DNA from: an uncultured Erysipelotrichaceae bacterium
GTDB lineage: Bacteria; Bacillota_I; Bacilli_A; Erysipelotrichales; Erysipelotrichaceae
Direction: 5' to 3'
DNA: 32,000 nt
Assembly (NCBI GenBank): GCA_942493105.1
Contig: OW818668.1
Coordinates: 1,080,001-1,112,000, forward strand
A program made the translations under genes and the position numbers. The notes below the pieces were generated by a model. That model did not search any database, was not told the origin of the DNA, and was given only the letters and a program-made list of their open reading frames with translations. Positions within the stretch are counted from its first letter, which is position 1. Every line of letters starts with the position of its first letter. This document shows positions 563-24,252 of the stretch, piece after piece.

Positions 563-739
563 TTTATCCCTTTCCTCATAATAAAAGCCATTACAAAAAT
601 TGTAACAGAGAATCTTTAGATTTACATATCTATTACATATTGAAGTGAATATTTTGAGGAAGTGTGAAAGTGGATTAGGTCGACATTTATAGAGTAACAA
701 TGTTGAAGTGGTCTGAGAAAAACTACTCAGACTTTGGCT

Positions 740-847
740 TTGGCAAACTCACCGTTGGACAAGATTGGTAGTGCCTAAGCGTTAATACTAGAATGTAGGG
801 AATGCTCCATGTGGAGCTGATACGAAGACCGTGGAGAGTTCTGGAAT
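740..847 (+). ncRNA. R1 element copy 1: unclassified structured-looking intergenic element
   Basis: About 108 nt, roughly 84% identical (hand alignment) to 6093-6201, while flanks are unrelated. Helices: GCTCC 804-808 / GGAGC 813-817 (loop differs between copies); GGACAA 757-762 / TAGT(G)CC 769-775, where A762-T769 is C-G in the other copy; ACTCACC 747-753 / GGAGAGT 833-839. TAG 769-771 stops the frame that is open in copy 2, so it is non-coding. Preceded by hairpin GTCTGAG 711-717 / CTCAGAC 726-732. Confidence 0.55.
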
Positions 848-858
848 TAGATGAATTG

Positions 859-891
859 ATGGTAGACTAGCGGACTAAGAAAAGGGATATT
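859..891 (+). promoter_or_regulatory. S box copy A: conserved promoter-like box (TAGACT 863-868, 17-nt spacer, GATATT 886-891)
   Basis: One of four copies of GGTAGACTA-N8-AAGAAAAGGGATA(A/T)T. The -35-like and -10-like hexamers are exactly 17 nt apart in all copies. Lies 78 nt upstream of ATG 969. This copy lacks the upstream ACACGCATAGTAGG flank. Confidence 0.5.
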
Positions 892-968
892 GGAAATAAT
901 GTTGGGTAGGTCATAAACCTCTCCATGAAAGTCAAAGAAGACCAATTTTCCCAAAATGAGGTATCAAT

Positions 969-2685: not shown

Positions 2686-3984
2686 GAAAACGTGAGTAAA
2701 AGTCAGTTCAATCATGATGTCAAACGTGGCAATGGTCAAGCATACTTGATTCTTTTGAATGCGAAAGACAGAGAGAACTATAAAAATGAGCTTTTAGAAG
2801 CTTGCTTGAGGTGTGACACCTTGAATGCCCAAGATGAACCTGGACGGGCAGATTATCTCTATCGGATGATCAGACTTTATCCTGATCCTAGCTACTTTGA
2901 AGCAAAAATCATTGAGAAACTCAATGATCCCACGATGGAGTTTGGCTTGTTTGACCAATTGTCGGATTTGTTGACCTTTATGGCGAAAGAAGGAAGTCAT
3001 AAGGCACTTGATCATATGTGGGCACTCTACGACATTCTAATTGATAGGATGAAAAACGAGAAGAGTTCGCCGGAAATCGAATCAAATTTGGATCATTTGG
3101 CTGTTGATCTTGATCAGATTCTAGGCTTCACCGCTTTTGAAAAGATCGCTCAGGATTATGTCGACATCAATTTGATGTTGGATCTTCACGATTTTGACAT
3201 GAGTTATTTTTTCTTCATGACTTCAGAAAAATACGGGAAGTCCATAACCCAAGCCTATACTGATCAATTTAAACCCATCAATGAAACTGACAACATTCAT
3301 GATCAACAACGCCCACGACCTGAAAAGGGTAAGATGACCCTTCAGGATATCATCGATCAAAACGATAAACTGAATCATTATCAAATCAGAAAGTATCTGG
3401 AAACGGTCACATCCAAAGAACTCGATGATTTATTTGAGCTGATTAAGAAAGAACCCGATTTCAATCGTCGTTTCCGACTCCTTTCCTTTTTTAGTTTCAC
3501 TGATCATCCCATAGACATCGAATTGGTAATCGGTTGGCTAAAGGACCAAAAAACCCCATTTCCAGATAGGGTATATTGGGTATTATTGAGAAGACCTTGT
3601 TTGGCGGTGTATGACTATGCCAAGAGTAAACTGAGTGATCGAAAGCATGCCAATACTGCCTTGATTTTGATGTGTGCCAGTTTCAATCATCAGGAAAAAG
3701 ATGAACTTATCTATCGTATAAAACATATTAAGAACAAGTTTTTCTTACATGACCTGTTCTCTTGGGCATTATTGAAGTTGTATGAAAGGGATACTAAGGC
3801 ACCGGAGGAATTAATGTGGTATTACTTGCATGAGTCAGTCTGCTCTCACTGTCGATTTTCTTTGGTCAAAATCATGGGCAAAAGGAAACTACTCTCTCGA
3901 GATAATCTGGTGGAATTGACTTTCGATTGTAATCAAAACACGATCGATTATGCAAAATCGCTCCTAGAGGCATATACGGAATAG
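2668..3984 (+). CDS. hypothetical protein (up to 438 aa; start uncertain)
   Basis: Long ORF in track. The TTG 2668 start lies inside the S box spacer. The next in-frame start is GTG 2692, right after the -10-like hexamer. No domain recognised. Confidence 0.7.
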   Translation: MKKRDNENVSKSQFNHDVKRGNGQAYLILLNAKDRENYKNELLEACLRCDTLNAQDEPGRADYLYRMIRLYPDPSYFEAKIIEKLNDPTMEFGLFDQLSDLLTFMAKEGSHKALDHMWALYDILIDRMKNEKSSPEIESNLDHLAVDLDQILGFTAFEKIAQDYVDINLMLDLHDFDMSYFFFMTSEKYGKSITQAYTDQFKPINETDNIHDQQRPRPEKGKMTLQDIIDQNDKLNHYQIRKYLETVTSKELDDLFELIKKEPDFNRRFRLLSFFSFTDHPIDIELVIGWLKDQKTPFPDRVYWVLLRRPCLAVYDYAKSKLSDRKHANTALILMCASFNHQEKDELIYRIKHIKNKFFLHDLFSWALLKLYERDTKAPEELMWYYLHESVCSHCRFSLVKIMGKRKLLSRDNLVELTFDCNQNTIDYAKSLLEAYTE

Positions 3985-4085
3985 TTTAAGCGAATACGAA
4001 TTCAGCGGTGCCTTCTAAGAACTGGTAAAATAAGGTTGCAGTCGAGTTTGAAGCCATTCGTCTTTCAGGAAGAAATCCAGGGAGT

Positions 4086-4607
4086 ATGATAAATCACATG
4101 AAATACAAAGCCATTAATGAAATAAGCCACTTCTCATACCATGATGCTGAAATCACGTCGTTTTCCATTAAGGAACATACAATGCATTGGATCGTAGATG
4201 ATATCAATGCAACTATAGAGAACTCTCAAAACAACTTACCTGAAGACATGCGTATTCTAGGATGCATCATTGAGTTTGAAGATGTTCAAGTTGACGAAAT
4301 CATATTCTGTGCCAACTCGCAGTTTGACGAAAACTGGAATTTAATAAAATCTGAACCAGCAAGAAACGTAAATCCTTCTGAATTTGCGACTATTCTTGAA
4401 GAAACCATGAATTCCTGGTGTCGTATCCAAGATTTATCAGCATTGCCCGAAACGAATAATGGAAGATATAGAATCAGTATCTGTCTTGATGGTCATGTTG
4501 GAATTTACAATCTTAACATATCATATAGGACATTCATTGCGCAGTGGGATGAATATTACGGAAAAGCTTGGTATGAAGAAGAACGATGGAAAAACAGTAA
4601 GAAGTGA
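4086..4607 (+). CDS. hypothetical protein (173 aa)
   Basis: ORF track. AGGGAG lies just upstream. ATG 4086 or ATG 4098 are both possible starts. There is no S box between it and the preceding gene, so it is probably co-transcribed. Confidence 0.7.
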   Translation: MINHMKYKAINEISHFSYHDAEITSFSIKEHTMHWIVDDINATIENSQNNLPEDMRILGCIIEFEDVQVDEIIFCANSQFDENWNLIKSEPARNVNPSEFATILEETMNSWCRIQDLSALPETNNGRYRISICLDGHVGIYNLNISYRTFIAQWDEYYGKAWYEEERWKNSKK

Positions 4608-4624: not shown

Positions 4625-4665
4625 GTGTGTTGAGAATATGCAGTTCGGCTATTTAGAGTAACAAC
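4625..4665 (+). repeat. cassette-junction boxes J1 (GTGTGTTGAGAATATG) and J2 (ATTTAGAGTAACAAC)
   Basis: J2 aligns with 685-700 (ATTTATAGAGTAACAA), 6061-6076 and 11141-11153. The J1 core TGTTGAGAA recurs at 6011-6026 (GTGTTGAAAATA) and 7755-7770 (TTGTTGAGAAAC), always shortly after a stop codon. Confidence 0.4.
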
Positions 4666-4674
4666 ATAATAATT

Positions 4675-4717
4675 AAACACATAGTAGGTAGACTATCAGA
4701 TGAAGAAAAGGGATAAT
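4675..4717 (+). promoter_or_regulatory. S box copy C (TAGACT 4689-4694, 17-nt spacer, GATAAT 4712-4717)
   Basis: AAACACATAGTAGGTAGACTATCAGATGAAGAAAAGGGATAAT, 52 nt upstream of TTG 4769. Confidence 0.55.
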
Positions 4718-4768
4718 GAGAATAGACATTATAACTCGAATGGGTCTTCAAAATGAGGTAACAATAAT

Positions 4769-5992
4769 TTGGATAAACAAAAATATGAAAGATGTACTCC
4801 CCACAGAGACGAAGTATTTAAGAATGAATACCGTTCTTTTTTTGCTTTGAACAAAGTGGAAATGCAATGGAACCAGGTTTATCTAAATCAATCGACTTCT
4901 GTTTATTTTGATGGGGATATCATTGTCAAAGTGATTGAAAACAAACTTGTGGTTTGTGAAGATGGAACTCTGTTTGGCTCTTATATAGAATTTGATACAT
5001 TTGATAATACCGAATCCAGAAGCTTTATTTTACCAAAAACCAATCGGGGGAAAAAGAAGAAGATTACTCCTTCCTCAGTCATGAGTATACTGCCCCAAGG
5101 ATGCAGCTTCTATTTCTTTATATCTGACGAAGATTCTAGTAATAGGATAGTTTTATTAAACAATCGAAACAATCAGGAGATCAGAATCACTGGATTTGAT
5201 AGTGTAAGGACCGCAAACCAATTACATTCCTTTTTTGAGGATTATGTTAAGACATGCCCCAATGATTACTTTGAGAAAATTGATCGATTGAGAAATGCAA
5301 AGCATGTTACCATTAAATACCGCACTGGTGATATCTTTAGGTTCGATTTGGACCGAAGCCATTATGGTTATGGATTGATCATTGCCAGTATCTCAAAACT
5401 AGAGAAAGATAAATTGATTTATCCTCCTCATGGTTTGTGTACACTGATGGGTCAAGGTTTGATCATTCGGTTATATAAGATCAGCACTGAAGATCCAAAC
5501 TTGAAGTCTGAAAATCTTAGAAGCATTGACTTATTGCCTGCTGATGCTATGATGGATAATACCATTATATGGAATAGACACCCTATCGTTGATCATAAAA
5601 AACTAGAGGAAAATGACGTAGATTTTCCGTTTCAACTTAGTAAAACTACGAGCGGAAACATCGTGTTGGATCGTTTTATAAGCTGGGGAATCGGTATTAA
5701 GAAATCGGACCAACATAGTTTCCCTACAAATACTAAATTCAGCTGGAAATCTAATTTAGCTATATCGCAAATTATTCCTTATTATCTACTGGAGAAAGCG
5801 TTACAAGGTTGTTCGGGCACCAGTGTTTATTCAGATTTGCGTCACCCAGATAACATCGAACAATACCATGCTGTTTTAGAATATTTCGGCCTAGATCCCG
5901 AGATAAGTTTTGATGAATTTAATCGGTCTTGCGGAGGAATGACAAGAAAGCAGTATGCAGATTACATAAATTTCCCAAAAGATCAGAACTAA
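4769..5992 (+). CDS. hypothetical protein (407 aa); C-terminal half faintly reminiscent of Imm26-type immunity proteins
   Basis: ORF track. GAGG 4755-4758 is in the shared CAAAATGAGGTA block (4749-4760). The segment YRTGDIFRFDLDRSHYGYGLIIASI resembles the GDxFxxPL..G.YGxG pattern I associate with Imm26-like proteins. This is from memory only and is not verified. Confidence 0.65.
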   Translation: MDKQKYERCTPHRDEVFKNEYRSFFALNKVEMQWNQVYLNQSTSVYFDGDIIVKVIENKLVVCEDGTLFGSYIEFDTFDNTESRSFILPKTNRGKKKKITPSSVMSILPQGCSFYFFISDEDSSNRIVLLNNRNNQEIRITGFDSVRTANQLHSFFEDYVKTCPNDYFEKIDRLRNAKHVTIKYRTGDIFRFDLDRSHYGYGLIIASISKLEKDKLIYPPHGLCTLMGQGLIIRLYKISTEDPNLKSENLRSIDLLPADAMMDNTIIWNRHPIVDHKKLEENDVDFPFQLSKTTSGNIVLDRFISWGIGIKKSDQHSFPTNTKFSWKSNLAISQIIPYYLLEKALQGCSGTSVYSDLRHPDNIEQYHAVLEYFGLDPEISFDEFNRSCGGMTRKQYADYINFPKDQN

Positions 5993-6092
5993 GTATCGGT
6001 TGAATTGGAACGTGTTGAAAATAGCGAAATCCTTTGTAAAAATAACATTGTGATACAGAAATTTATAGTATCAAATAAATCATATCACGCTC

Positions 6093-6201
6093 TTGGCAAA
6101 CTCATTGTGGGACACGATTGGGTGTGCCTAAGCGTTCATACTAGACTGTGGGGAATGCTCCACCTGGAGCGAATACGAAGACCGTGGTGCGTTCTGAGAA
6201 T
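6093..6201 (+). ncRNA. R1 element copy 2
   Basis: Aligns with 740-847. Helices: GCTCC 6157-6161 / GGAGC 6166-6170; GGACAC 6110-6115 / GTGT(G)CC 6122-6128; ACTCATT 6100-6106 / GGTGCGT 6186-6192. The track ORF 6005-6259 spans it but is stopped in the other copy. Confidence 0.55.
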
Positions 6202-6269
6202 GGACTGTAGTATTTATATAAAAGCGCCTATAAAAATCAGTGGATACACTCACAAATGAATTGAGGAAA

Positions 6270-6830
6270 ATGATGCTTAAGAACGAAAATACTAAACTTC
6301 CTTCTTATCGAATACCAATTATCATGATTTTTGGTGCTGTATTGTTATACTTCGCAATCTTCGCAATCGATGACTTTTTTGATTTCAGCGAGGGGTTCTT
6401 AAGAAATCTGTACTTTAGTGTTATGGGAGCAATATGTATTAGTACACTACTTTTCAATCTTTTTGAATTGGGCAATGTTTTAGATAAGCGCAATCTAGCT
6501 AAACTAAAAAGAACAAAAAAAGAAGAGCTTCGTTTTGTTAAGATACCATTGGAAGAAATACTTCATCTATGCGAATCAAATGATATTTTACGAATTGTCA
6601 TTACAACAGATTCTGGGATCGTAAAGACTGGCTCAGCTTCAGATTTGAATAGGAGAACTGGTAAGTTCTTTGACAAGGTTTATTATATCGATGATGATAA
6701 TTTCAATACAATTGAACAATATAGCCAGACCTTAACAGAGCGCATTCATGGTGATAGGTATTTATCTGTGATTACGATTGAGGATCTGCCTCCAACAGAA
6801 TTCAATAGGAAGTATTTAAATAATTTATAA
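6270..6830 (+). CDS. membrane protein (two N-terminal TM helices plus a soluble C-terminal domain)
   Basis: The track ORF starts at 6240. The in-frame ATGATG at 6270 follows GAGG 6263-6266 and gives MMLKNENTKLPSYRIPIIMIFGAVLLYFAIF. Hydrophobic stretches are visible by eye. Confidence 0.7.
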   Translation: MMLKNENTKLPSYRIPIIMIFGAVLLYFAIFAIDDFFDFSEGFLRNLYFSVMGAICISTLLFNLFELGNVLDKRNLAKLKRTKKEELRFVKIPLEEILHLCESNDILRIVITTDSGIVKTGSASDLNRRTGKFFDKVYYIDDDNFNTIEQYSQTLTERIHGDRYLSVITIEDLPPTEFNRKYLNNL

Positions 6831-6870: not shown

Positions 6871-6894
6871 AGTTTAGATGAGAGTCCAGAAATA

Positions 6895-6936
6895 CACGCA
6901 TAGTAGGTAGACTATAAGGGCAATAAAAGGGATAAT
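6895..6936 (+). promoter_or_regulatory. S box copy D (TAGACT 6908-6913, 17-nt spacer, GATAAT 6931-6936)
   Basis: ACACGCATAGTAGGTAGACTATAAGGGCAATAAAAGGGATAAT. The implied TSS near 6943 would leave GGTGG 6950-6954 plus ATG 6959 as the translation start. Confidence 0.55.
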
Positions 6937-6958
6937 AATGATAACAACGGGTGGCAAT

Positions 6959-7351
6959 ATGAAAAAGAATAATTTGCTGTTAATTTCTTGGATTCTGACT
7001 GTCTTATATTTTCTTCTACTGTATAAATCGCTAAGTAACATTGGTTCACAAACAAACGATGCTTCTGGCATTATCGCGCTTGGCCTATTAGGTATTTTTG
7101 TGTTTCCACATATTATCTTGGCTTTTCTAGGAGGTTTATTTAATATTCTCGGTTGGGCACTCAATAAGAAAGGATTTGCACTTACTGGGGCTATTCTGTA
7201 TTCCGTGGCTATGGTATTTATGATTCCGCTTTTTTATTTCCTCATCATTCAAATGGTGTTGTCATATATCGGGTACGCAACTATGAATACTTCTATCCAA
7301 AATAGTAATAGAAACGAAAGACGGAATTTGGACGATTACCGATCACTATAA
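6959..7351 (+). CDS. small polytopic membrane protein (~4 TM)
   Basis: The track ORF starts at 6938, 2 nt after the -10-like hexamer. The in-frame ATG 6959 (MKKNNLLLISWILTVLYFLLL) has an SD-like GGTGG. The protein is mostly hydrophobic. Confidence 0.7.
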   Translation: MKKNNLLLISWILTVLYFLLLYKSLSNIGSQTNDASGIIALGLLGIFVFPHIILAFLGGLFNILGWALNKKGFALTGAILYSVAMVFMIPLFYFLIIQMVLSYIGYATMNTSIQNSNRNERRNLDDYRSL

Positions 7352-7417
7352 CGCTATTCATTAATGAACATTATTTGAAAAGCGACTCATTTTCGAAATT
7401 TAATTGCGGAGTAAAGA

Positions 7418-7747
7418 ATGAAAATACTAAGAAAGTGCATATTGACAATGTTTATAGTAGTCTCTCTTTTTGGGGGGATATTTTGGTATTATCATCCAAC
7501 ACATTATAAATACAATGGCCGGTTTATCATTGGAAGTTCTATAGAAGAGATCACGTCCGAATACGGTGACTTTGATAAGGTTTTTTACACAGATTCCAGC
7601 AACATCACAATATCGGGTGCTGGATATCTCGTTCAACAAGAAAAGAAGGGGTTCTTAGGAACAAGCCCTGAAAAGTACTATATGATCGTCTTTGATTCTA
7701 CCGGGAAGGCAATTTCGGTATCCATTGGGGGTGGGTGGGGTGGCTAA
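7418..7747 (+). CDS. small membrane-anchored protein (109 aa, N-terminal TM)
   Basis: ORF track. GGAG lies 7 nt before the ATG. N-terminal hydrophobic segment CILTMFIVVSLFGGIFWYY. Confidence 0.7.
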   Translation: MKILRKCILTMFIVVSLFGGIFWYYHPTHYKYNGRFIIGSSIEEITSEYGDFDKVFYTDSSNITISGAGYLVQQEKKGFLGTSPEKYYMIVFDSTGKAISVSIGGGWGG

Positions 7748-7798
7748 GAGCCAGGCTTGTTGAGAAACGAATAATCCCTAATCACAGCTTAGATCATC

Positions 7799-7897
7799 TG
7801 TCCCATCATCCCGAGGGACACGAATGCACCCAGCCCTTAAGTTAATACTCGTCAACATAGAACGTTTCCCTAAGTGTCCCGGACTGACAGAGGGAAT
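7799..7897 (+). ncRNA. R3 element copy 2
   Basis: Aligns with 1322-1421. Arms: GGGACAC 7815-7821 / GTGTCCC 7874-7880; TCCC 7801-7804 / GGGA 7892-7895; AAGT 7839-7842 / GTTT 7864-7867. Ends 46 nt before ATG 7944. Confidence 0.6.
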
Positions 7898-7943
7898 GAA
7901 TTTATTGCCGGTGATATTTAGAGATTAAAAATATGGTGGGGAT

Positions 7944-8828
7944 ATGAAACGTAAAACTAAAAGAACAATTTGGATTATAGTGACATTTTTTGCATTAATG
8001 ATTTTGGCTGACTATTCAAACAACAATCAGGAAACAAGTAGTTCAATAATCGGTTTTCTTGAGCTCAGTGTTATTGTTATATCAATTATATCTTTCGGTA
8101 AACTGTTTGGTCCAAAGAAAGTGAATAAAGCTCCGTTTATAACTGAAAGACCCTATAATTCTTCTCAAACTAACAATGAAGCAACAATGGATCTTTCGCT
8201 TTTTACTAATATCAATTCCTATACAGTTCCTCAAGAAACTTATCCAGAACATTCTGGAAGAATTGGGGAGAATCGGGTTGCTAAAGAGCTTAGCAAATTA
8301 GGTATTGGACGAAAGATCATTAGAAACCTAATAATTGGAAATGATCACGCTACAACAGAAATTGATTGTGTATTTATCACTGAGTGCGGAATTTATGTTA
8401 TTGAATCGAAAAACTTCAATGGATGGATCTTTGGTAATCTATCTCAAAAAAATTGGACGCAGACATTTCCTAATCAAACAAAAAATCAGTTTTTTAATCC
8501 AGTTCTCCAGAATCAGGGTCACATTAACGCACTTCGATATCTTTTAGATAAGTACCCAGGTATTGATATAAGATCAGTGATCGTTTTTTCTGATAGTGCA
8601 ACTCTAAAGAAGATACCAGAGTCGACAAATGATCTGCTTATTCTTAATGAGTCTGAACTGTATAAAATACTTGAGGCATCAATAGAATATAACAAAAAAA
8701 TAAGGCGAGGACCTACTTTAACACCAGATCAAATCTATCGCATTTGGTTTTTCCTTTATCAACATAATATTGAATCTTTCAGGAAACGCGATAAGCATAT
8801 AGAAAATGTTCAGAATAAGAAAATATAA
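7944..8828 (+). CDS. NERD (nuclease-related domain) protein with two N-terminal TM segments
   Basis: GENRVAKELSKLG...EIDCVFITECGIYVIESKNFNGWIFG...NPVLQNQGHINALRYLL...VIVFSD matches the NERD pattern (E-x-D, EVK-type core) as I know it. N-terminal hydrophobic stretches are present. GGTGGGG SD lies before the ATG. Confidence 0.8.
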   Translation: MKRKTKRTIWIIVTFFALMILADYSNNNQETSSSIIGFLELSVIVISIISFGKLFGPKKVNKAPFITERPYNSSQTNNEATMDLSLFTNINSYTVPQETYPEHSGRIGENRVAKELSKLGIGRKIIRNLIIGNDHATTEIDCVFITECGIYVIESKNFNGWIFGNLSQKNWTQTFPNQTKNQFFNPVLQNQGHINALRYLLDKYPGIDIRSVIVFSDSATLKKIPESTNDLLILNESELYKILEASIEYNKKIRRGPTLTPDQIYRIWFFLYQHNIESFRKRDKHIENVQNKKI

Positions 8829-8890: not shown

Positions 8891-8953
8891 GCCTTGAGAG
8901 ATACAAGTCTAATTAGACGCTATCCAAAGTGTCCCAGATTGACAGAAGGGGAT
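8891..8953 (+). repeat. R3 element copy 3: 5'-truncated and diverged
   Basis: GCCTTGAGAGATACAAGTCTAATTAGACGCTATCCAAAGTGTCCCAGATTGACAGAAGGGGAT aligns with the 3' two-thirds of R3 (1358-1421). Agreement is best over the last ~38 nt. The GGGACAC arm is absent. Confidence 0.55.
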
Positions 8954-12241: not shown

Positions 12242-12249
12242 TATACTTA

Positions 12250-12298
12250 GGGAGCACCCATCGTTTTGATCTAATCAAAATTTTGGGTGCTCCCTTTT
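12250..12298. terminator. bidirectional terminator between convergent genes
   Basis: GGGAGCACCCA 12250-12260 / TGGGTGCTCCC 12284-12294, followed by TTTT. The loop contains a nested TTTTGAT/ATCAAAA hairpin. Confidence 0.8.
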
Positions 12299-17233: not shown

Positions 17234-19444
17234 ATGAGAAATAATGCCTATGTCTTTTTACTGGTTGATGACAAATATGAGAATCTGATCATTCTCAAAG
17301 CTTTGATCAAAGAATCATATCCAAATGCAATCTTTCATAGTGCCCTAAATGGAAAAGATGCATTAGAATTAGCTCGTTCAGAAGAACCGGATGTCATCTT
17401 GTTGGATATTATGATGCCAGATATGAATGGGTATGAAGTATGTGCCTTATTAAAAAGTGAACCAGTCCTAGAAGATATACCGGTGATGTTTGTGACTGCA
17501 TTGAACAGTGATAAAGAAACGCGTTTGAAAGCCATAGAAGCAGGTGCTGATGCTTTTCTTCACAAACCCATAGAAAATCTGGAGCTGTTTGTTCAGCTGC
17601 GAACTTTACTTCGCTTAAGAGCCTATAATCTCAGAAAGAAAGGAAAAATTACTGATCTTGAAGGGGATTTGAAAGTAAAAAATATAGAATTGCAGGCCAG
17701 TGAAGAACGCTTTAGACTGATGGTTGAAAGCATTTCTGATACCATTGGTATCACAGATCCTGATGGGATCATCAAGTTTAGAAGCCCCAATAATGAACGT
17801 TTATTTGGAATAAAGCCTCAGGATATCATTGGGAAGAGCTCATTTGATTTCGTTCACCAGGATGATAAAGAAAGATTACGTAATGAATTCTCTGTGTTGG
17901 TCAATGAAGGTAATGATGCGAGACGTAGTGGAGAATTTAAATATTTACGTCAAGACGGTTCGGTAGTTAACGTTGAACTTGAAGGACGAAATATGATGGG
18001 AAATGAGCTGATTGACGGCATACTCTTAACCTTTAAAGATATTACTGAGAAAAAAGTTGCGAATCGTAAAGTTGAAGAAGAATCTGAGAAACTAAAAGCC
18101 TTGGTTGAAAGCACAGATGATTTGGTGTGGATGGTGAATCCGAAAGATTATGGACTTATTCTGTTTAATAAAGCATTATATCGATATTTCGAAACCGGCT
18201 CTGGTATTAAAATAGAAAAAGGGATGCGTCCTCAAGATTTGCTTAAGGCTGATTTTGCCTTAAAATGGAAGGAAATGTATGAAAATGCCCTGCAAAATGG
18301 AGCCTACAAGTTAGATTATGGAACATCAGCATTAGGTAGAATACTGAGACTATCATTCTATCCAGTCAAACTTAGAGATGAGGTCATTGGTATCACAGTT
18401 GTAGGCCAAGATATCACCGATCTAAAACGAAGTGAAGAAAGTCTTCGTAAAGCACTAGTCCAAAACCAAAGAATTCTAGACAATCTTACAGATTCTTATT
18501 TTCAAACAGACTTATCTGGAAAATTAATCATGGTCAACCCCAAAGCCTACAAAATGTTTGCGTATCAATCTATCGATGAAATGATTGGTTTACCCGCATC
18601 ATCACTTTATGCCTATGTAACTGATCGAGATTATCTTATGGGTGAGTTGAGAAAACATGGTAGCTTGAGTGACTACTCATTTCTCGCTTGTCGAAAAGAT
18701 GGCTCTACCTTTTGGGTCTCGATGAATGCTCAATTTTTAAGAGACGAAACCGGAACCATCATAGGAACTGAAGGTCTAGTTCGAGACATCAGCGAACGCA
18801 AGAATTTTGAGGACGAGATTGAAAAACAAAGCGATGATTTAAAGAGTAGCAACAAAAAGCTAAAAGAAAGAATCAATCAATCGGTTAGTGCCATATCTAG
18901 AATTGGAGAGTTAAGAGATGTTTATACAGCCGGTCATCAAAAGAGAGTTCAATTATTGGCGTGTGAAATCGCTCGTGAAATGAATTTGTCTGAAGAAGCC
19001 ATCATTAATATTTCATATGGTGCCTTGATCCATGATATTGGCAAGATCACAGTATCTTCGGATATTCTAAATAAACCTGGTAAAATTACTCAGCTAGAAT
19101 ATCAGATCATACAGACTCATGTTGAACAAAGTTATAACATCGTCAAGGAGATCGATTTCTCTATTGAAGTACCTACCATGATTTTACAGCATCATGAACG
19201 ATTAGACGGTTCAGGTTATCCCAATGGCCTAAAGGGAGATGAGATTACACTGGAAAGTCGAATATTAGCTGTAGCAGATGTTGTTGAAGCCATGACCTAC
19301 CATCGTCCATATCGTCCAGCCATAAGCATCGAGGTTGTATTGAAAGATATTGAGCAGAATAAAGGGATTAAATTCGACACACAGGTCGTTGATGTTTGTA
19401 TAAGTCTATTTAAAGATAAGAACTATCGATTCCTAGATGATTGA
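17234..19444 (+). CDS. response regulator receiver - PAS x3 - HD-GYP phosphodiesterase
   Basis: REC domain (LLVDD...DVILLDIMMPDMNGYE...K). PAS regions. HD-GYP core HDIGK...HHERLDGSGYP. Confidence 0.9.
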   Translation: MRNNAYVFLLVDDKYENLIILKALIKESYPNAIFHSALNGKDALELARSEEPDVILLDIMMPDMNGYEVCALLKSEPVLEDIPVMFVTALNSDKETRLKAIEAGADAFLHKPIENLELFVQLRTLLRLRAYNLRKKGKITDLEGDLKVKNIELQASEERFRLMVESISDTIGITDPDGIIKFRSPNNERLFGIKPQDIIGKSSFDFVHQDDKERLRNEFSVLVNEGNDARRSGEFKYLRQDGSVVNVELEGRNMMGNELIDGILLTFKDITEKKVANRKVEEESEKLKALVESTDDLVWMVNPKDYGLILFNKALYRYFETGSGIKIEKGMRPQDLLKADFALKWKEMYENALQNGAYKLDYGTSALGRILRLSFYPVKLRDEVIGITVVGQDITDLKRSEESLRKALVQNQRILDNLTDSYFQTDLSGKLIMVNPKAYKMFAYQSIDEMIGLPASSLYAYVTDRDYLMGELRKHGSLSDYSFLACRKDGSTFWVSMNAQFLRDETGTIIGTEGLVRDISERKNFEDEIEKQSDDLKSSNKKLKERINQSVSAISRIGELRDVYTAGHQKRVQLLACEIAREMNLSEEAIINISYGALIHDIGKITVSSDILNKPGKITQLEYQIIQTHVEQSYNIVKEIDFSIEVPTMILQHHERLDGSGYPNGLKGDEITLESRILAVADVVEAMTYHRPYRPAISIEVVLKDIEQNKGIKFDTQVVDVCISLFKDKNYRFLDD

Positions 19445-21038: not shown

Positions 21039-21357
21039 TAGATTTGATCTCACGATCATGAACAATCATTTTTAATATCATGAAGAAAATATTGGTATGT
21101 AGTATAGGTTTTCAATTCAGTTTTGAGTATTAATAGGAGTTGTAATAGCTTCAATAGAATATGGATTTCAAAAACTTTCATATTCATAAAAATGATGAAT
21201 GTTACAAGATTAACAATACGAAATCGCTTATTAGGATAATATCGACTAATTATCGATAGACAAAGAGATTATAACAAGCGATAATAATGGTATTAGTTGT
21301 ATCGATGTTTTTAAAATAGCCAATCGAGTTTTGTATATATGATCCTTGGAGAACTCA

Positions 21358-24252
21358 ATGGAAAGCTTCAATTTGAATAAAAACGAAAAAAACGAAATCA
21401 AACTTTCGCGTTCAGATGAAAAGTTTAAGTGGCTTTTTGAACTTTCACCTGTCGGAATGGCTTTAATTAATCATCAAACAGGTGAGTTTATTGAAGTTAA
21501 TCAGTCTTTGCTTACAACAACAGGCTATACAAAAGAAGAATTTCTTAAATTGAGCTTTTGGGATATTACACCTCATGAATATAGAGAACAAGAATTACAG
21601 CAAATGAAAGACCTTGAATCTAAAGGTCGATTTGGTCCAAACGAAAAAGAATATATACGAAAAGATGGGTCAAGATTTCCAGTACGTATCAGTGGGTTCT
21701 CATTTGACGATGTGGATGGAACTAAACTAGTTTGGGGAATCATTGAAGACATCAGTAGTCAGTACAGAAGGATATTTAATGACCTTAGAGATGCGTATAT
21801 ACAAATCGACTTATCCTATAACTTAATCTTGGTAAACCCAACGGCTATAAAGATGTTTGGCTATAATACTTATGATGAAATGATTGGATTGAGTGTGGAT
21901 AAATTATTCCTTGATCAAGATGGACTGGAAAAAATACGTGAATATTTAGATAAAAATGATAATTTAAATGATTTCAGTTGCCAATATGTTCGAAAAGATG
22001 GAACGTGGTTTTGGGGTTCACTGAATGTTCAATTAGTAAATGACAAACTTGGAAGTCTAATTGCGATTGAAGGCGTCATTCGTGATATCAGCGAACAAAA
22101 GCGTATTGAAGCTGAGGTAAGTGCAAACGAAGCGAAGTTTAAGACGGCATTTATGACGGGTGCGGATGCTTTTTATTGGGCTACCTTAAAAGACGGTAAA
22201 ATTATTGAAATCAATGATAGTTTTGAATCATTTTTTGGATATTCACGAGAAGAAGCAATCGGCAAAACGTCGACAGAGCTAAATCTATATAGCGAACCAA
22301 GCGATCGAGCAAGAATGATTTCAGAGCTTAAAGAGAAAGGTGTTATTCGAAATTTTGAATTGGTCGGAAGAAAAAAAGACGGCAGCAAAATCTTTGCATC
22401 GCTTTCTTCTAGTATAGTCAACATCAATGGTGAGCATTATAGTCTTGGAATTTTACATGACATAACCGATCGCAAAAATACTCAAGAAACCATTTTAAAT
22501 CTTAATCAAAATCTGCGAACATTATCAGATCGAATGGTTTTTGCAACACATTCAGCGAAACTTGGTATATGGGATTGGGATGTAGTAAACAACGACCTAA
22601 TCTGGGATGATGGAATGTACAATCTCTATAATATCCATCGCAAAGATTTTAATGGAGCGTATGAGGCTTGGATGTATCACATTCATCCTAAAGACAAAGA
22701 AAAAGCAGAAATTGCAATTCAAGATGCTCTACAAGGCATAAAAGACTATAATATTGAATTTAGGATTCTTTGGTCTAATGGATCTGTTCATTACATTTAT
22801 GCGACAGGTCAGGTGTTCTTTGATTCTAATGGGAAACCATTACGTATGGTTGGAATCAATCAAGATATAACTCAAAACAAGAATTTAGAGATTAGCTTAT
22901 ATGAAACTGTGAAACAAAATCAAAGGATTTTAGAGAATCTTCAAGATGCTTATTTTCAAGCTGATCTAAAAGGTGTGTTTACCATTGTTAACCCCATAGC
23001 TGTACAATTATACGGATATAATAGTGCAGATGAAATGCTTGGACAACCAGCCAAATCCTTATATGCTAATCCAATTGACCGAGATATCATGATTGCTACT
23101 CTAAAACAAGAGGGTCAAGTTAAAGATTATACTTGCCAAGGATTAAGAAAAGATGGAACAGCTTTTTGGGTTTCAATGAATGTCCAATTTGTTAAGAATA
23201 ATGATGGAACAATTATGGGGACTGAAGGTGTGGTCCGTGATATATCAAAACGTATTCAAGATGAAAATAAAATAAAACATGAAGTCCAAAGATATGATGC
23301 TCTTATTGAGAGTACAAATGATTGGATTTGGGTAGTCGATTCTAAAAGTTTTGATTTGGTTTTATTCAACTCGTCTGTCGCAGACTATTTCAAAAGAAAT
23401 CATAATATTATTTTGAGACCAGGTATGCCCAATGATGAAATGCTCTCAGAAAGTCGGAGAATATTGTGGAGGCAACTGTACACAAAGGCCATCAAAGAAG
23501 GTAAGTTTTCAATAGAGTATCAGACAGCATCTGAAAATATACACTTTTTGGTTTCATTGGCTCCGGTTGTTATAGATGATTCAATCGTAGGTGTTTCGAT
23601 ATTCGCTAAAGATATATCCAAAGAAGTCCATTATAAAGAAGAGTTAGAAGCAAGCAATATCATGTTATCAAGCAGACTCAATCAAACCATCAATGCCATA
23701 TCAAAGATTGGTGAAATGCGTGATGTATATACTGCTGGACATCAAAGAAGAGTTGCTGAGTTAGCATGTGCCATAGCTAAGGAAATGGGCTTATCAGAAG
23801 AAAAAGTTAACAACATTTATTTTGGAGCATTGATTCATGATATCGGAAAGATCAATATTGCATCCGACATTCTGAATAAACCCGGAAAGATCTCAAGTCT
23901 TGAATATCGTATTTTACAGACCCATGTTGATCAAAGTTTCGATATTGTCAAAGGAATTGATTTCCCATCACAGATCATATCGATGATTTATCAACATCAT
24001 GAGTATTTAGATGGTAGTGGATATCCAAAAGGACTGCATGGTGATCAGATTATTTTGGAAAGCAGAATTTTAACAGTATCTGATGTGGTTGAAGCCATGT
24101 CTTCTCATCGACCTTATCGAGCTGCCTTAGGTACACAGAAAGCACTTGAAGAGATATTAATGAACAAAGGAAAGAAATACGATAAAGATGTAGTAGATGC
24201 TTGCGTTAGATTGTTTATCGAAAAAGGATTTGCTTTTACAACCTATATGTAA
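21358..24252 (+). CDS. multi-PAS (about 6) HD-GYP phosphodiesterase
   Basis: ATG 21358 follows GGAG 21348-21351 (the track starts at TTG 21346). Repeated PAS modules. HD-GYP core HDIGK...HHEYLDGSGYP. The C-terminal ~190 aa are closely similar to those of ORF 17234-19444. Confidence 0.9.
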   Translation: MESFNLNKNEKNEIKLSRSDEKFKWLFELSPVGMALINHQTGEFIEVNQSLLTTTGYTKEEFLKLSFWDITPHEYREQELQQMKDLESKGRFGPNEKEYIRKDGSRFPVRISGFSFDDVDGTKLVWGIIEDISSQYRRIFNDLRDAYIQIDLSYNLILVNPTAIKMFGYNTYDEMIGLSVDKLFLDQDGLEKIREYLDKNDNLNDFSCQYVRKDGTWFWGSLNVQLVNDKLGSLIAIEGVIRDISEQKRIEAEVSANEAKFKTAFMTGADAFYWATLKDGKIIEINDSFESFFGYSREEAIGKTSTELNLYSEPSDRARMISELKEKGVIRNFELVGRKKDGSKIFASLSSSIVNINGEHYSLGILHDITDRKNTQETILNLNQNLRTLSDRMVFATHSAKLGIWDWDVVNNDLIWDDGMYNLYNIHRKDFNGAYEAWMYHIHPKDKEKAEIAIQDALQGIKDYNIEFRILWSNGSVHYIYATGQVFFDSNGKPLRMVGINQDITQNKNLEISLYETVKQNQRILENLQDAYFQADLKGVFTIVNPIAVQLYGYNSADEMLGQPAKSLYANPIDRDIMIATLKQEGQVKDYTCQGLRKDGTAFWVSMNVQFVKNNDGTIMGTEGVVRDISKRIQDENKIKHEVQRYDALIESTNDWIWVVDSKSFDLVLFNSSVADYFKRNHNIILRPGMPNDEMLSESRRILWRQLYTKAIKEGKFSIEYQTASENIHFLVSLAPVVIDDSIVGVSIFAKDISKEVHYKEELEASNIMLSSRLNQTINAISKIGEMRDVYTAGHQRRVAELACAIAKEMGLSEEKVNNIYFGALIHDIGKINIASDILNKPGKISSLEYRILQTHVDQSFDIVKGIDFPSQIISMIYQHHEYLDGSGYPKGLHGDQIILESRILTVSDVVEAMSSHRPYRAALGTQKALEEILMNKGKKYDKDVVDACVRLFIEKGFAFTTYM

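Follow-up and report, generated by a model that had tools for sequence, protein, structure and literature searches.

R3 is a real hairpin-forming repeat of about 100 bases that had not been catalogued before. It was found in the window, by which we mean the whole 32,000-nucleotide stretch analysed here, and on related metagenomic contigs. Literature searches found no published description of the element, and Rfam (release 15) gave no match at the gathering threshold in the whole window and none at E ≤ 10 between positions 600 and 9300 (4227 families). We tentatively propose that R3 is a co-transcribed leader or intercistronic RNA element belonging to a dispersed repeat family. With equal reserve, it may represent the best-preserved type within a family of intergenic elements, GC-rich and lineage-restricted, interspersed in a mosaic island of accessory genes. 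The island around R3 includes immunity-like and defence-like genes.

Position of R3 in two units of the window

The features of the two units and the remaining S boxes are listed below.

859-891, + strand: S box copy 1, promoter-like TAGACT-17-GATATT at the head of unit 1 (repeat family, n = 4)
969-1232, + strand: proximal ORF of unit 1, 87 aa, no family match
1259-1321, + strand: 5′ extension of R3a, less conserved (block GTGGATTTATAAGAG...), homologous to L005 and L013 and more weakly to others
1322-1424, + strand: R3a, a type-1 R3 element (repeat comparison; covariance model, 122.8 bits)
1461-2354, + strand: ORF297, distal ORF of unit 1, 297 aa, GTG start, identical to public protein P0001
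2545-2572, + strand: perfect hairpin with a U run, intrinsic-terminator-like, closing unit 1 (read from the sequence)
2653-2685, + strand: S box copy 2; the conserved block reaches upstream to about 2520 on L017
4685-4717, + strand: S box copy 3, 5′ of the Imm26 ORF (repeat family and promoter scan)
6904-6936, + strand: S box copy 4, head of unit 2 (repeat family and promoter scan)
6959-7351, + strand: 130-aa membrane ORF, with a homologue at another place on L017
7418-7747, + strand: 109-aa ORF, N-terminal segment hydrophobic; a homologue lies 3′ of NERD on L021
7798-7900, + strand: R3b, a type-1 R3 element (repeat comparison; covariance model, 122.8 bits)
7944-8828, + strand: NERD ORF, distal ORF of unit 2, 294 aa (Pfam NERD, E = 1.2e-28)

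The earlier note had placed R3 in the same slot of both units, and this was borne out. R3a (1325-1421) and R3b (7801-7897) form a direct repeat of 97 nt with 91% identity (blastn E = 3e-32), each having small ORFs on its proximal side and a larger ORF on its distal side, and the 3′ end of R3 stands 40 nt (unit 1) and 47 nt (unit 2) before the distal start codon. The claim that the proximal and distal genes are separated by neither a promoter box nor a terminator also held. The scan gave no S box or terminator-like site between proximal stop and distal start (1233-1460 and 7748-7943), and no strong promoter was found there in either unit; the single promoter-like match, at 1263-1292, was weak (9/12), and the scan's match count was not above its shuffles.

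The distal proteins of the two units are unrelated. ORF297 is all-helical and has a weak similarity to DUF5677 that lies below the cutoff (E = 0.013); its structure model, with a pLDDT of 44, was unusable. The NERD ORF combines an N-terminal hydrophobic segment with the NERD domain, is identical to public protein P0004, and has orthologues that form a graded series. Both small ORFs of unit 2 have hydrophobic N-termini. The same 26 nt of the terminator-like hairpin behind ORF297 are present on L020, and the hairpin is not in the terminator-scan list.

All four S boxes of the window are sigma-70-like. Three of them (2657-2685, 4689-4717 and 6908-6936) were listed by the promoter scan as TAGACT-17-GATAAT, matching the sigma-70 consensus at 9/12 positions, while copy 1 is not in the scan list and its hexamers were read by eye. 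Homologues of the S box were found on L013, L017, L021 and L022. The SAM 'S-box' riboswitch was rejected as an identity for this box because Rfam gives no match.

R3 and its relatives as a repeat family

The GC content of R3 is 51%, compared with 31% in the remaining intergenic DNA of the island. Its core covers about 100 nt, and the looser 5′ extension brings this to about 165 nt; in R3a this 5′ side comprises about 65 nt of less conserved homology (1259-1321) that is common to copies in other genomes. A 23-nt core pattern matched three times in the window, against 0.00 expected from shuffles. The flanks of R3a and R3b are unrelated, and the tract of identity stops exactly at the arms, giving sharp edges. 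The most conserved feature of R3 is its primary sequence, not its structure, and this applies especially to the 3′ half, which is kept in decayed copies. The relatives of R3 in the window are as follows.

737-850, + strand: D4a, a distant relative of R3, abutting S box 1 (repeat and family alignment)
3938-4021, + strand: D4-type remnant (3′ half), overlapping the stop of ORF 2692-3984 (repeat comparison)
6090-6203, + strand: D4b, second D4 copy, between the Imm26 ORF and ORF 6240-6830 (repeat and family alignment)
8893-8949, + strand: R3c, a decayed copy of which the 3′ half alone is recognisable (nhmmer E = 1e-5; covariance model, 18.8 bits)

R3c begins 65 nt past the stop of the NERD ORF. 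D4a and D4b (737-850 and 6090-6203) constitute a 104-nt repeat; D4a has a 5′ arm of type 2 and a 3′ half with a hairpin insertion of about 20 nt, and a homologue of D4b lies directly 3′ of NERD on L021. The combination of a type-2 5′ arm with a type-1 3′ arm was considered as a hybrid att recombination product and set aside, as the family-wide alignment suggests ordinary divergent subfamilies. The 23 kb of housekeeping genes in the window contain no R3 copies.

R3 copies in other genomes

The survey of copies covered 32 kb of the source genome and the fetched related contigs. Ten further copies were found on seven metagenomic contigs, and the covariance model found 13 copies in the window and seven independent contigs. 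All 13 stand between genes and share the strand of their neighbors, and nine of them end 3-85 nt short of the following start codon. An exact-pattern scan of metagenomes gave one true match (L005) and five chance matches (L001-L004 and L006). Two core patterns had no match in the GTDB species representatives; in IMG/VR the patterns gave no matches or chance ones (L023 and L024, inside a 700-aa ORF of a phage contig), and blastn against plasmid and phage collections gave none.

R3 homologues were found upstream of genes elsewhere, as the earlier note had anticipated, and orthologues of both distal genes are again preceded by R3 in sense orientation. On L007/L008, an ORF297 orthologue (81% aa identity) follows a diverged R3 that ends about 40 nt before its start (the position was scored as kept on L007), and R3 stands 3-48 nt before the start of NERD orthologues on L012, L017/L018, L021 and L022. 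The last of these shows the full order of unit 2, i.e., S box, small membrane ORF, R3 and NERD. Since the slot recurs in other genomes, a cis relationship of R3 to the following gene is plausible. The proposal that R3 acts in cis on the distal gene was partly supported, through the recurrent position upstream of orthologues; the copies downstream of NERD count against it. Such copies occur in four genomes, where the outer neighbors of NERD and its flanking R3 are all different. Equivalents of R3c follow NERD on L013-16, L017/18 and L022. Between the four copies just 3′ of NERD and the next gene there are 124-305 nt, and two of these copies have lost their 5′ arm.

The association with a toxic product, which the earlier note had also suggested, was not supported, and neither was a tie to any particular distal product. 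R3 also precedes a DUF4062 gene and an unrelated membrane ORF; it is absent at the NERD orthologues on L019 and L020, and from the position directly upstream of NERD on L013.

Within the genome, R3a and R3b are 87-91% identical, compared with 49-71% for positional orthologues. This indicates the behavior of a repeat family and not the simple vertical inheritance of a leader. Where NERD orthologues share just 59% aa identity, the R3 cores are 71% identical, which argues for selection or spread. The S box, R3, D4, the ORFs of 130 and 109 aa, and NERD occur as modules whose order differs between genomes. The earlier note had missed that R3 is a member of a dispersed family whose copies evolve in concert. 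Since the family is dispersed and evolves in concert, a mobile or recombination-based explanation has to be weighed.

R3 as a possible mobile or junction repeat

According to this explanation, the main rival, which we consider somewhat unlikely, R3 would be a DNA repeat, non-autonomous and either mobile or prone to recombination, and either MITE-like or a 'junction' repeat at cassette seams; its position 5′ of genes would be a by-product of tolerance, and any effects on expression would be incidental. The arms of about 24 nt resemble terminal inverted repeats, and the R3a-R3b identity ends exactly where they do. The closeness of paralogues within a genome, the R3 copies on both sides of NERD in four genomes with different outer neighbors, and the different orders of the same modules across genomes all agree with it, as do the decayed half-copies that abut the stops of upstream genes and a stem that has no RNA-strand asymmetry. 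However, no target-site duplication was found at the edges of the R3a, R3b, L005, L013 and L017 copies, and homology runs past the arms on the 5′ side. With their conserved 3-nt bulges at different positions, the two arms look more like those of a folded hairpin than like a pair of equivalent ends bound by a transposase.

MITEs typically occur as many dispersed copies in both orientations, together with a parent IS that has the same ends. In the 32 kb and the related contigs covered, R3 has one orientation in 5/5 independent insertion contexts, and its density is low, the 23-kb housekeeping part of the window being free of it. Neither a transposase nor a recombinase was seen among the scanned window genes (2-25790) or in the precomputed Pfam lists of the fetched contigs bearing NERD or R3, and the plasmid, phage and IMG/VR collections gave no R3 matches. 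A Transposase_mut gene was seen on L009/L010 only, and these have no R3.

R3 was also compared with known repeat families. It is like the known dispersed intergenic hairpin repeats in its length of about 100 nt, its intergenic position, its long imperfect hairpin with inverted-repeat ends, its several diverged subfamilies, the greater likeness of copies within a genome than between genomes, and its location inside transcription units, where hairpin repeats are known to alter mRNA processing or stability. It differs from them in its low density, its single orientation, its confinement to the accessory island in the sequence covered, the missing target-site duplication, an interior more conserved than the arms, and the recurrent linkage to NERD and ORF297; similarity in sequence and an Rfam match are also absent. 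REP/BIME elements are palindromes of 20-40 nt with a GTAG/CGTC tag and a high copy number, whereas R3 is about 100 nt long, has no such tag and is found at low density.

Fold and covariation of R3

The two ends of R3 can pair to form an imperfect closing stem of about 19 bp, with conserved asymmetric bulges, around a sequence-conserved interior of 52 nt. In R3a the stem consists of UUCCC/GGGAA, GUUAUCC/GGAU(U)GAC and GGGACAC/GUGUCCC, with 18 Watson-Crick pairs and one G-U pair out of 19, and in R3b 17/19 pairs are Watson-Crick. The arms, of about 24 nt, form duplexes of -14 to -24 kcal/mol in the better copies, and they differ by conserved 3-nt bulges (indels) at different positions. Helix 2 is made of other sequences on L013 (GUCAUUC/GAAUGAC), L017 (ACUUUC/GAAA(U)GU) and L007 (UUCAG/CUGAA). 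The folding energy of single sequences was no better than that of shuffles (z = -0.16 and -0.14), and the comparison of cognate with non-cognate arm duplexes was uninformative (mean -15.7 versus -14.4 kcal/mol).

In the unfitted alignment, 81% of the stem cells were paired, compared with 20-44% for slid partners, and no pair had changed on both sides. The model-fitted alignment of 13 copies had 75% of its stem cells paired, against 25-44% when slid, and a covariation score of 0.267 against at most 0.144; the observed value was reached by 0 of 500 shuffles. Since the unfitted alignment holds no both-side change, this signal depends on register shifts and model fitting, and the covariation of R3 is modest and alignment-dependent. 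No consensus structure was found in the interior, and a local 3′ hairpin (UUCCCU...AGGGAA) and interior helices were rejected as having no consensus support.

As to an expression platform, no terminator follows R3 and no sequestration of the RBS is visible; the RBS lies 30-40 nt past R3 in the window, and the tail of R3 abuts it in L017, L021 and L022 only. With neither an Rfam match nor an interior consensus structure nor an expression platform, the earlier suggestions of a ribozyme or a ligand-binding leader found no evidence.

Strand asymmetry was absent from the stem, with 21 G-U and 23 A-C cells, and the pairing therefore fits DNA or the other strand as well as the sense RNA. This bears on a comparison with integrons. 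Their attC sites have R″ (RYYYAAC) and R′ (GTTRRRY) boxes at the ends and a variable interior, and they go with an adjacent integrase and promoterless single-ORF cassettes. R3 shares several traits with attC sites such as the Vibrio VCR: a hairpin of about 100-120 nt whose pairing is imperfect, asymmetric bulges that are conserved, one extrahelical base, a single orientation in all copies, and a position at the borders of single accessory genes within a shuffled array. Copies border NERD in differing genomic contexts, the cassette order is mosaic, and the pairing has no RNA-strand bias.

If the analogy were followed, the R3 family would be attC-like sites folding as single-stranded DNA for a tyrosine recombinase, in an integron-like cassette array of a low-GC Gram-positive lineage, which is quite improbable. 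It is just as improbable that R3 and D4 would be folded single-strand recombination sites, possibly for a different recombinase, delimiting exchangeable cassettes such as NERD, immunity-like and membrane genes. The attC boxes are absent on both strands, and R3 ends in UUCCC...GGGAA instead. No integrase was found among the window genes at 2-25790 or in the precomputed Pfam lists of the related loci, which cover about 100 kb. Each unit between elements contains one to three ORFs, and the units have S-box promoters of their own and a terminator. The interior is the most conserved part of R3, opposite to that of attC.

Other explanations for the conserved sequence

Conservation of primary sequence over structure, in particular in the 3′ half that survives in decayed copies, also speaks for a DNA binding site (operator or roadblock) or an internal promoter element, where a lineage-specific regulator would recognise the invariant 3′ block GAAYGCTTCCCTAAGTGTCCCGGATTGACAGAGGGAAT. 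This block contains the inverted repeats TGTC-N7-GACA and TTCCCT-N19-AGGGAA and a perfect TTGACA. But TTGACA is not followed at the appropriate distance by a consistent -10 in any copy, the promoter scan gave no match inside R3, and a promoter within the element was rejected for want of that -10 partner. An element of 100 nt with long-range complementary arms is atypical for an operator, and a linked candidate regulator gene is absent. We regard this explanation as improbable.

Another explanation would be a small peptide encoded in the frame ...ERFPKCPGLTEG..., which is open in every copy and in which a few substitutions of the 3′ block are synonymous. This is scarcely credible: first codon positions are the most variable, there is no third-position periodicity, and the central changes all fall at second codon positions. 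Copies are out of frame with one another through a 2-nt indel, a start codon is missing from R3a, and a profile of the conceptual peptides had no match among 5.8 billion proteins. The missing periodicity, the indel and the lack of protein homologues effectively refuted R3 as a coding sequence.

The earlier note had compared R3 with type III toxin-antitoxin systems, in which tandem direct repeats of 34-40 nt precede the toxin gene, an intrinsic terminator lies between them, and the toxin is a ToxN/AbiQ-type endoribonuclease. R3 would then be an RNA partner restraining a toxic distal protein. As in ToxIN, CptIN and TenpIN, it is non-coding and immediately upstream of a potentially harmful gene on the same strand, one distal gene being that of a NERD (nuclease-related) protein. 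The analogy did not hold in other respects. R3 is a single unit and not a tandem array; none of the three trivial arrays (about 20 nt) given by TRF is near R3. There is no terminator between R3 and the distal gene, and Pfam, NCBIfam and PADLOC matched the distal proteins to NERD or to nothing, with no ToxN-type family match; these proteins are mutually unrelated (NERD, the DUF5677-like helical protein, DUF4062 and a membrane ORF). Some NERD orthologues have no R3, and R3 is also found downstream of NERD. An antitoxin RNA is thus very improbable.

Proposed role and significance

Among the explanations considered, a part of the mRNA that influences the following gene is the likeliest for R3, although it may instead work as a DNA recombination or mobile element. 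The RNA element would be transcribed within mRNAs from the S-box promoter or another upstream promoter, fold as RNA, and affect the following gene in cis, either as its leader or as an intercistronic determinant. Long imperfect duplexes are of the kind cut by RNase III-type enzymes, and the likeliest mechanism would be a processing or stability site formed by such a duplex, or a site at which a sequence-specific RNA-binding factor docks. In either role R3 could uncouple the expression of the distal gene from that of the proximal ORFs. The copies may have spread and been homogenised among cassettes via recombination or gene conversion.

Comparative genomics has found cis-regulatory leader RNA motifs upstream of accessory and defence-type genes, and these are catalogued in Rfam. 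R3 is like them in that a conserved non-coding block, rich in GC, stands on the sense strand shortly 5′ of start codons, is kept upstream of orthologues across genomes and has conserved pairing potential. It is unlike them in having no family match and no expression platform, in its weak and alignment-dependent covariation, in also being located downstream of genes, and in being followed by unrelated gene families instead of one.

Should R3 function as an RNA leader, unrelated defence- and immunity-type cassettes would have a portable expression module in common. Such a module would offer a handle on the way in which horizontally acquired genes are fitted into host operons at tolerable levels, and RNA family catalogues would gain a new candidate motif. 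If it is a recombination-prone or mobile repeat, R3 would mark the seams of island shuffling and aid the delimitation of cassettes in poorly sampled Gram-positive lineages. If the attC-like explanation were true, an integron-like cassette system would exist beyond the groups known to have integrons. Whichever applies, this island and its relatives are easily recognised by their R3, D4 and S-box repeats and open to mining for accessory genes that are new.

R3 copies in the two units of the window

The earlier note had described R3, a GC-rich element of about 100 nt, as a repeat shared by two gene units: unit 1 (S box 1, an 87-aa ORF, R3a and ORF297) and unit 2 (S box 4, ORF130, ORF109, R3b and a NERD gene). 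This was borne out, as the copies at 1325-1421 and 7801-7897 form a 97-nt direct repeat with 91% identity (blastn E = 3e-32), and in an alignment which included the flanks the similarity ended sharply at both edges. A 23-nt core pattern of R3 matched three times in the window, compared with 0.00 matches expected from shuffles. A decayed third copy, R3c, was found at 8893-8949 by a two-copy profile search, 65 nt past the NERD stop, and only its 3' half was recognisable. The distance from the end of R3 to the distal start codon is 40 nt for ORF297 and 47 nt for NERD. The earlier gene models of the two distal genes were right, their products being exact public protein entries.

Features of the two units
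1461-2354, + strand: ORF297, 297 aa, GTG start; identical to a public protein entry
7944-8828, + strand: NERD ORF, 294 aa, NERD domain (Pfam E = 1e-28); identical to a public protein entry
2545-2572: hairpin and U run at the end of unit 1

In both units, a sequence scan from the proximal stop to the distal start found neither an S box nor a terminator-like site. The sole promoter-like match there was a weak one at 1263-1292, from a scan whose match count was not above shuffles; apart from it, the proposal that no promoter box or obvious intrinsic terminator separates the proximal and distal genes held. The terminator hairpin after unit 1 (2546-2571) recurs without mismatch over 26 nt at positions 4180-4205 of an unrelated contig, L020, where it has the opposite orientation; it may be another small dispersed element.

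R3 in other genomes

R3 matched no Rfam family and no annotated plasmid or phage record, and no published description of it was found in the literature. Exact-pattern scans with the R3 core gave no match in GTDB (one genome per species) and no genuine match in IMG/VR, and a metagenome scan returned one true homologue, on contig L005, with a membrane-anchored ORF on one side of R3 and a second membrane ORF on the other. On L006 (1979-2003), an otherwise unrelated-looking contig with 40% GC and few ORFs, 22 nt match the R3 3' arm perfectly; this was judged to be chance, given the expected number of chance matches to the pattern.

Further relatives were reached by starting from the distal proteins. 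An ORF297 orthologue (contigs L007/L008) is 81% identical and frameshifted, with a diverged R3 upstream which ends about 40 nt before its start. For NERD, a graded series of full-length orthologues was obtained. R3 lies immediately upstream of NERD on L012, L017/L018, L021 and L022, and immediately downstream on L013-L016, L017/L018 and L022; on L021 the downstream place is taken by the D4 repeat, and L013 carries a full R3 copy ahead of a DUF4062-DUF2971-NERD block. The expectation that R3 homologues would precede genes elsewhere was correct for the orthologues of ORF297 and NERD but incomplete, as R3 also occurs 3' of NERD and is absent from the NERD loci of L019 and L020. With a covariance model built on five copies, the total reached 13 R3 copies, every one intergenic and on the strand of its flanking genes.

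The entire order of S box, small membrane ORF, R3 and NERD is repeated on L022, and S boxes were also found on L013, L017 and L021. Genes outside the R3, S-box and NERD modules were different at every locus. Homologues of ORF130 (window 6959-7351) and of ORF109 (matching segment, window 7413-7517) occur at L017 15773-16177 and L021 3512-3616, respectively, and their placement bears no relation to R3 or NERD. This shows that modules are shuffled independently, and the R3 islands are mosaics of them. The analysis covered 32 kb of the source genome and about five independent insertion contexts; most of the related contigs were found via NERD orthologues, which biases the contexts seen.

These comparisons left little of the earlier analogy with type III toxin-antitoxin systems, in which R3 would be an antitoxin-like RNA. 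R3 is not in a tandem array and has no terminator. No toxin of the ToxN type was detected, diverse genes occupy the distal place, and R3 is missing from some NERD orthologues; we consider the analogy very improbable.

Two neighbourhoods were observed in addition. L013 1-19156 is a dense defence island with a DNA methylase, McrBC, DUF4062, DUF2971, an OLD-family ATPase with a UvrD helicase (Gabija-like), a TIR protein, DUF4238 and the NERD orthologue, and it supports a defence-related role of the membrane-anchored NERD protein. On L009 (1472-3752), a distant ORF297 homologue (29% identity) is followed directly by a C5 DNA methylase and has HNH-domain genes nearby, a hint that the family of ORF297 (DUF5677-like) may be part of restriction or defence systems.

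The island, D4 and the S box

The first 9 kb of the window is a chain of mostly orphan ORFs with one Imm26 immunity-family protein and one NERD. R3, D4 and S-box elements are interspersed along it, all of them on the + strand, and none recurs in the remaining 23 kb, which contains ABC transporter, signalling and metabolic genes (Pfam, ORFs up to 25.8 kb).

Elements of the island and their relatives
3938-4021: remnant of a D4 3' half, overlapping the stop of ORF 2692-3984
836-898, 2631-2692, 4663-4724, 6882-6943: S boxes in the window
L013 7203-7258; L017 7850-7900; L021 2897-2946; L022 104-151, 794-846: S boxes on other contigs

D4 is a 104-nt repeat (737-850 and 6090-6203) with 86% identity between copies. 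D4 and R3 gave weak but reciprocal profile matches, and in a family-wide alignment D4 had the R3 layout, with a type-2 5' arm and the conserved centre CACGA...GCC..AAG..AATACT..GAAYGCTYCC; its 3' half bears a hairpin insertion of about 20 nt (GCTCCATGTGGAGC). D4 is a distant relative of R3. The D4 on L021 (2760-2866), in the post-NERD place held by R3 in other genomes, is followed by an S box, like window 737-898. The 84-aa ORF 6005-6259, which spans the D4 copy at 6090-6203 (D4b), is probably spurious.

The scan listed three of the four window S boxes as TAGACT-17-GATAAT, a 9/12 sigma-70-like match; S box 1, absent from that listing, was read by eye as TAGACT-17-GATATT. The SAM riboswitch of the same name was rejected, as Rfam gave no match. 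The consensus is ...CACGCATAGTAGGTAGACTA-N10-AAAAGGGATAAT, and the S box is a conserved, dispersed promoter-like module common to several uncultured genomes, always with accessory genes downstream. For the copy at 2520-2687, about 170 nt are conserved with L017. Because conservation extends strongly beyond the two hexamers, a dedicated regulator or sigma factor is suggested.

ORF 4769-5992 contains the Imm26 domain (polymorphic-toxin immunity, E = 2e-20), and the orphan ORFs 2692-3984, 4086-4607 and 6240-6830 near it belong to no family that could be matched. The island may consist of arrayed orphan immunity genes; no toxin gene was found in the window. Outside the island, 17234-19444 and 21346-24252 encode paralogous PAS/HD-GYP (HD_5) signalling proteins with about 69% nucleotide identity over the C-terminal 530 nt; within both, PAS modules are repeated (repeat families D1 and D2). 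A 22-bp inverted repeat at 12249-12295 (86% complementary, 3-nt loop), between a convergent aldo/keto reductase gene and a lipoprotein-like ORF, is probably a bidirectional terminator.

Structure and composition of R3

The ends of type-1 R3, the subtype of R3a and R3b, are complementary: 5'-UUCCC GUUAUCC [CGA] GGGACAC ... (52 nt) ... GUGUCCC GGAU[U]GAC [AGA] GGGAA-3'. This gives a stem of three helices and 19 pairs in all; its 3-nt bulges are asymmetric and one base is extrahelical, features kept in the better copies. Arm complementarity is poor in type-2 copies. When the five best copies were aligned without model fitting, 81% of stem cells were paired, compared with 20-44% when the partners were slid, and in fixed columns 0 pairs changed on both sides; compensations seen by eye require one-column register shifts. 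In the alignment of 13 copies, 75% of cells were paired (25-44% in slid controls), both-side changes occurred in 11 pairs and the covariation score was 0.267 (<=0.144 in slid controls; reached by 0/500 shuffles), statistics which depend partly on the model-fitted alignment. Helix 2 variants are GUCAUUC/GAAUGAC (L013), ACUUUC/GAAA(U)GU (L017) and UUCAG/CUGAA (L007). Since G-U (21) and A-C (23) stem cells are about equally frequent, the sense RNA strand is not marked. Single-sequence MFE of R3 was no better than shuffles.

No consensus structure was found in the 52-nt interior, which holds the most conserved sequence of R3, chiefly GAAYGCTTCCCTAAGTGTCC, continuing into the 3' arm and retained in decayed copies. 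The GC content of R3 is 51%, compared with 31% in the other intergenic DNA of the island. A DNA operator or promoter element is improbable, as the TTGACA in R3 has no consistent -10 partner.

R3 is non-coding. The frame ERFPKCPGLTEG is open, and its coding was rejected: variation is highest at first codon positions, a 2-nt indel breaks the frame and R3a is missing a start codon. The conceptual peptide profile found no match among 5.8 billion proteins, and a peptide gene is hardly credible.

Evolution of R3 and its relation to known elements

R3a and R3b are 87-91% identical. R3a and the copy that precedes the ORF297 orthologue share 56% identity, compared with 81% for the two proteins, and R3b shares 49-71% with the copies upstream of NERD orthologues. 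The L005 and L013 copies, which have different downstream genes, are 80-82% identical to R3a/R3b and thus closer than the positional orthologues. The family therefore spreads or undergoes concerted evolution, and R3 is not simply passed down together with its gene. Even so, where two genomes have NERD proteins of 59% identity, their R3 cores still share 71%, which would not be expected of unconstrained spacer DNA.

Concerted evolution fits the main rival to our reading, in which R3 is first of all a repeat at the DNA level, either MITE-like or a recombination junction, as do its inverted-repeat ends, its flanking of NERD in differing contexts, the mosaic islands and the lack of RNA-strand asymmetry in the stem. 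We judge this possible but rather unlikely, since R3 has no target-site duplication, homology reaching past the arms, conserved asymmetric bulges, one orientation only and low density, and no transposase was found near it. An attC-like single-strand recombination site is quite improbable: R boxes are absent, the units carry promoters of their own, and no integrase was seen.

Our favoured reading, a tentative one, is that R3 is transcribed as part of the mRNA and influences the following gene in cis. As a leader or intercistronic element, R3 would fold into a long imperfect duplex at which the mRNA is processed or its stability is set, or alternatively would be bound by a sequence-specific factor; expression of the following gene would be affected, and recombination would move R3 between cassettes. 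The transcribed-element and DNA-repeat readings need not be exclusive; ERIC and Correia-type repeats are both DNA repeats and co-transcribed RNA elements. In kind, R3 is like those intergenic repeats of other bacteria that are dispersed, form hairpins and are co-transcribed, and also like the leader motifs of comparative genomics. It lacks the defining features tested for type III toxin-antitoxin systems, attC sites and REPs, and has those of MITEs and riboswitch-like leaders only in part. R3 is a well-delimited, conserved element tied to cassettes of the defence and immunity types, in a low-GC lineage that has been poorly sampled.
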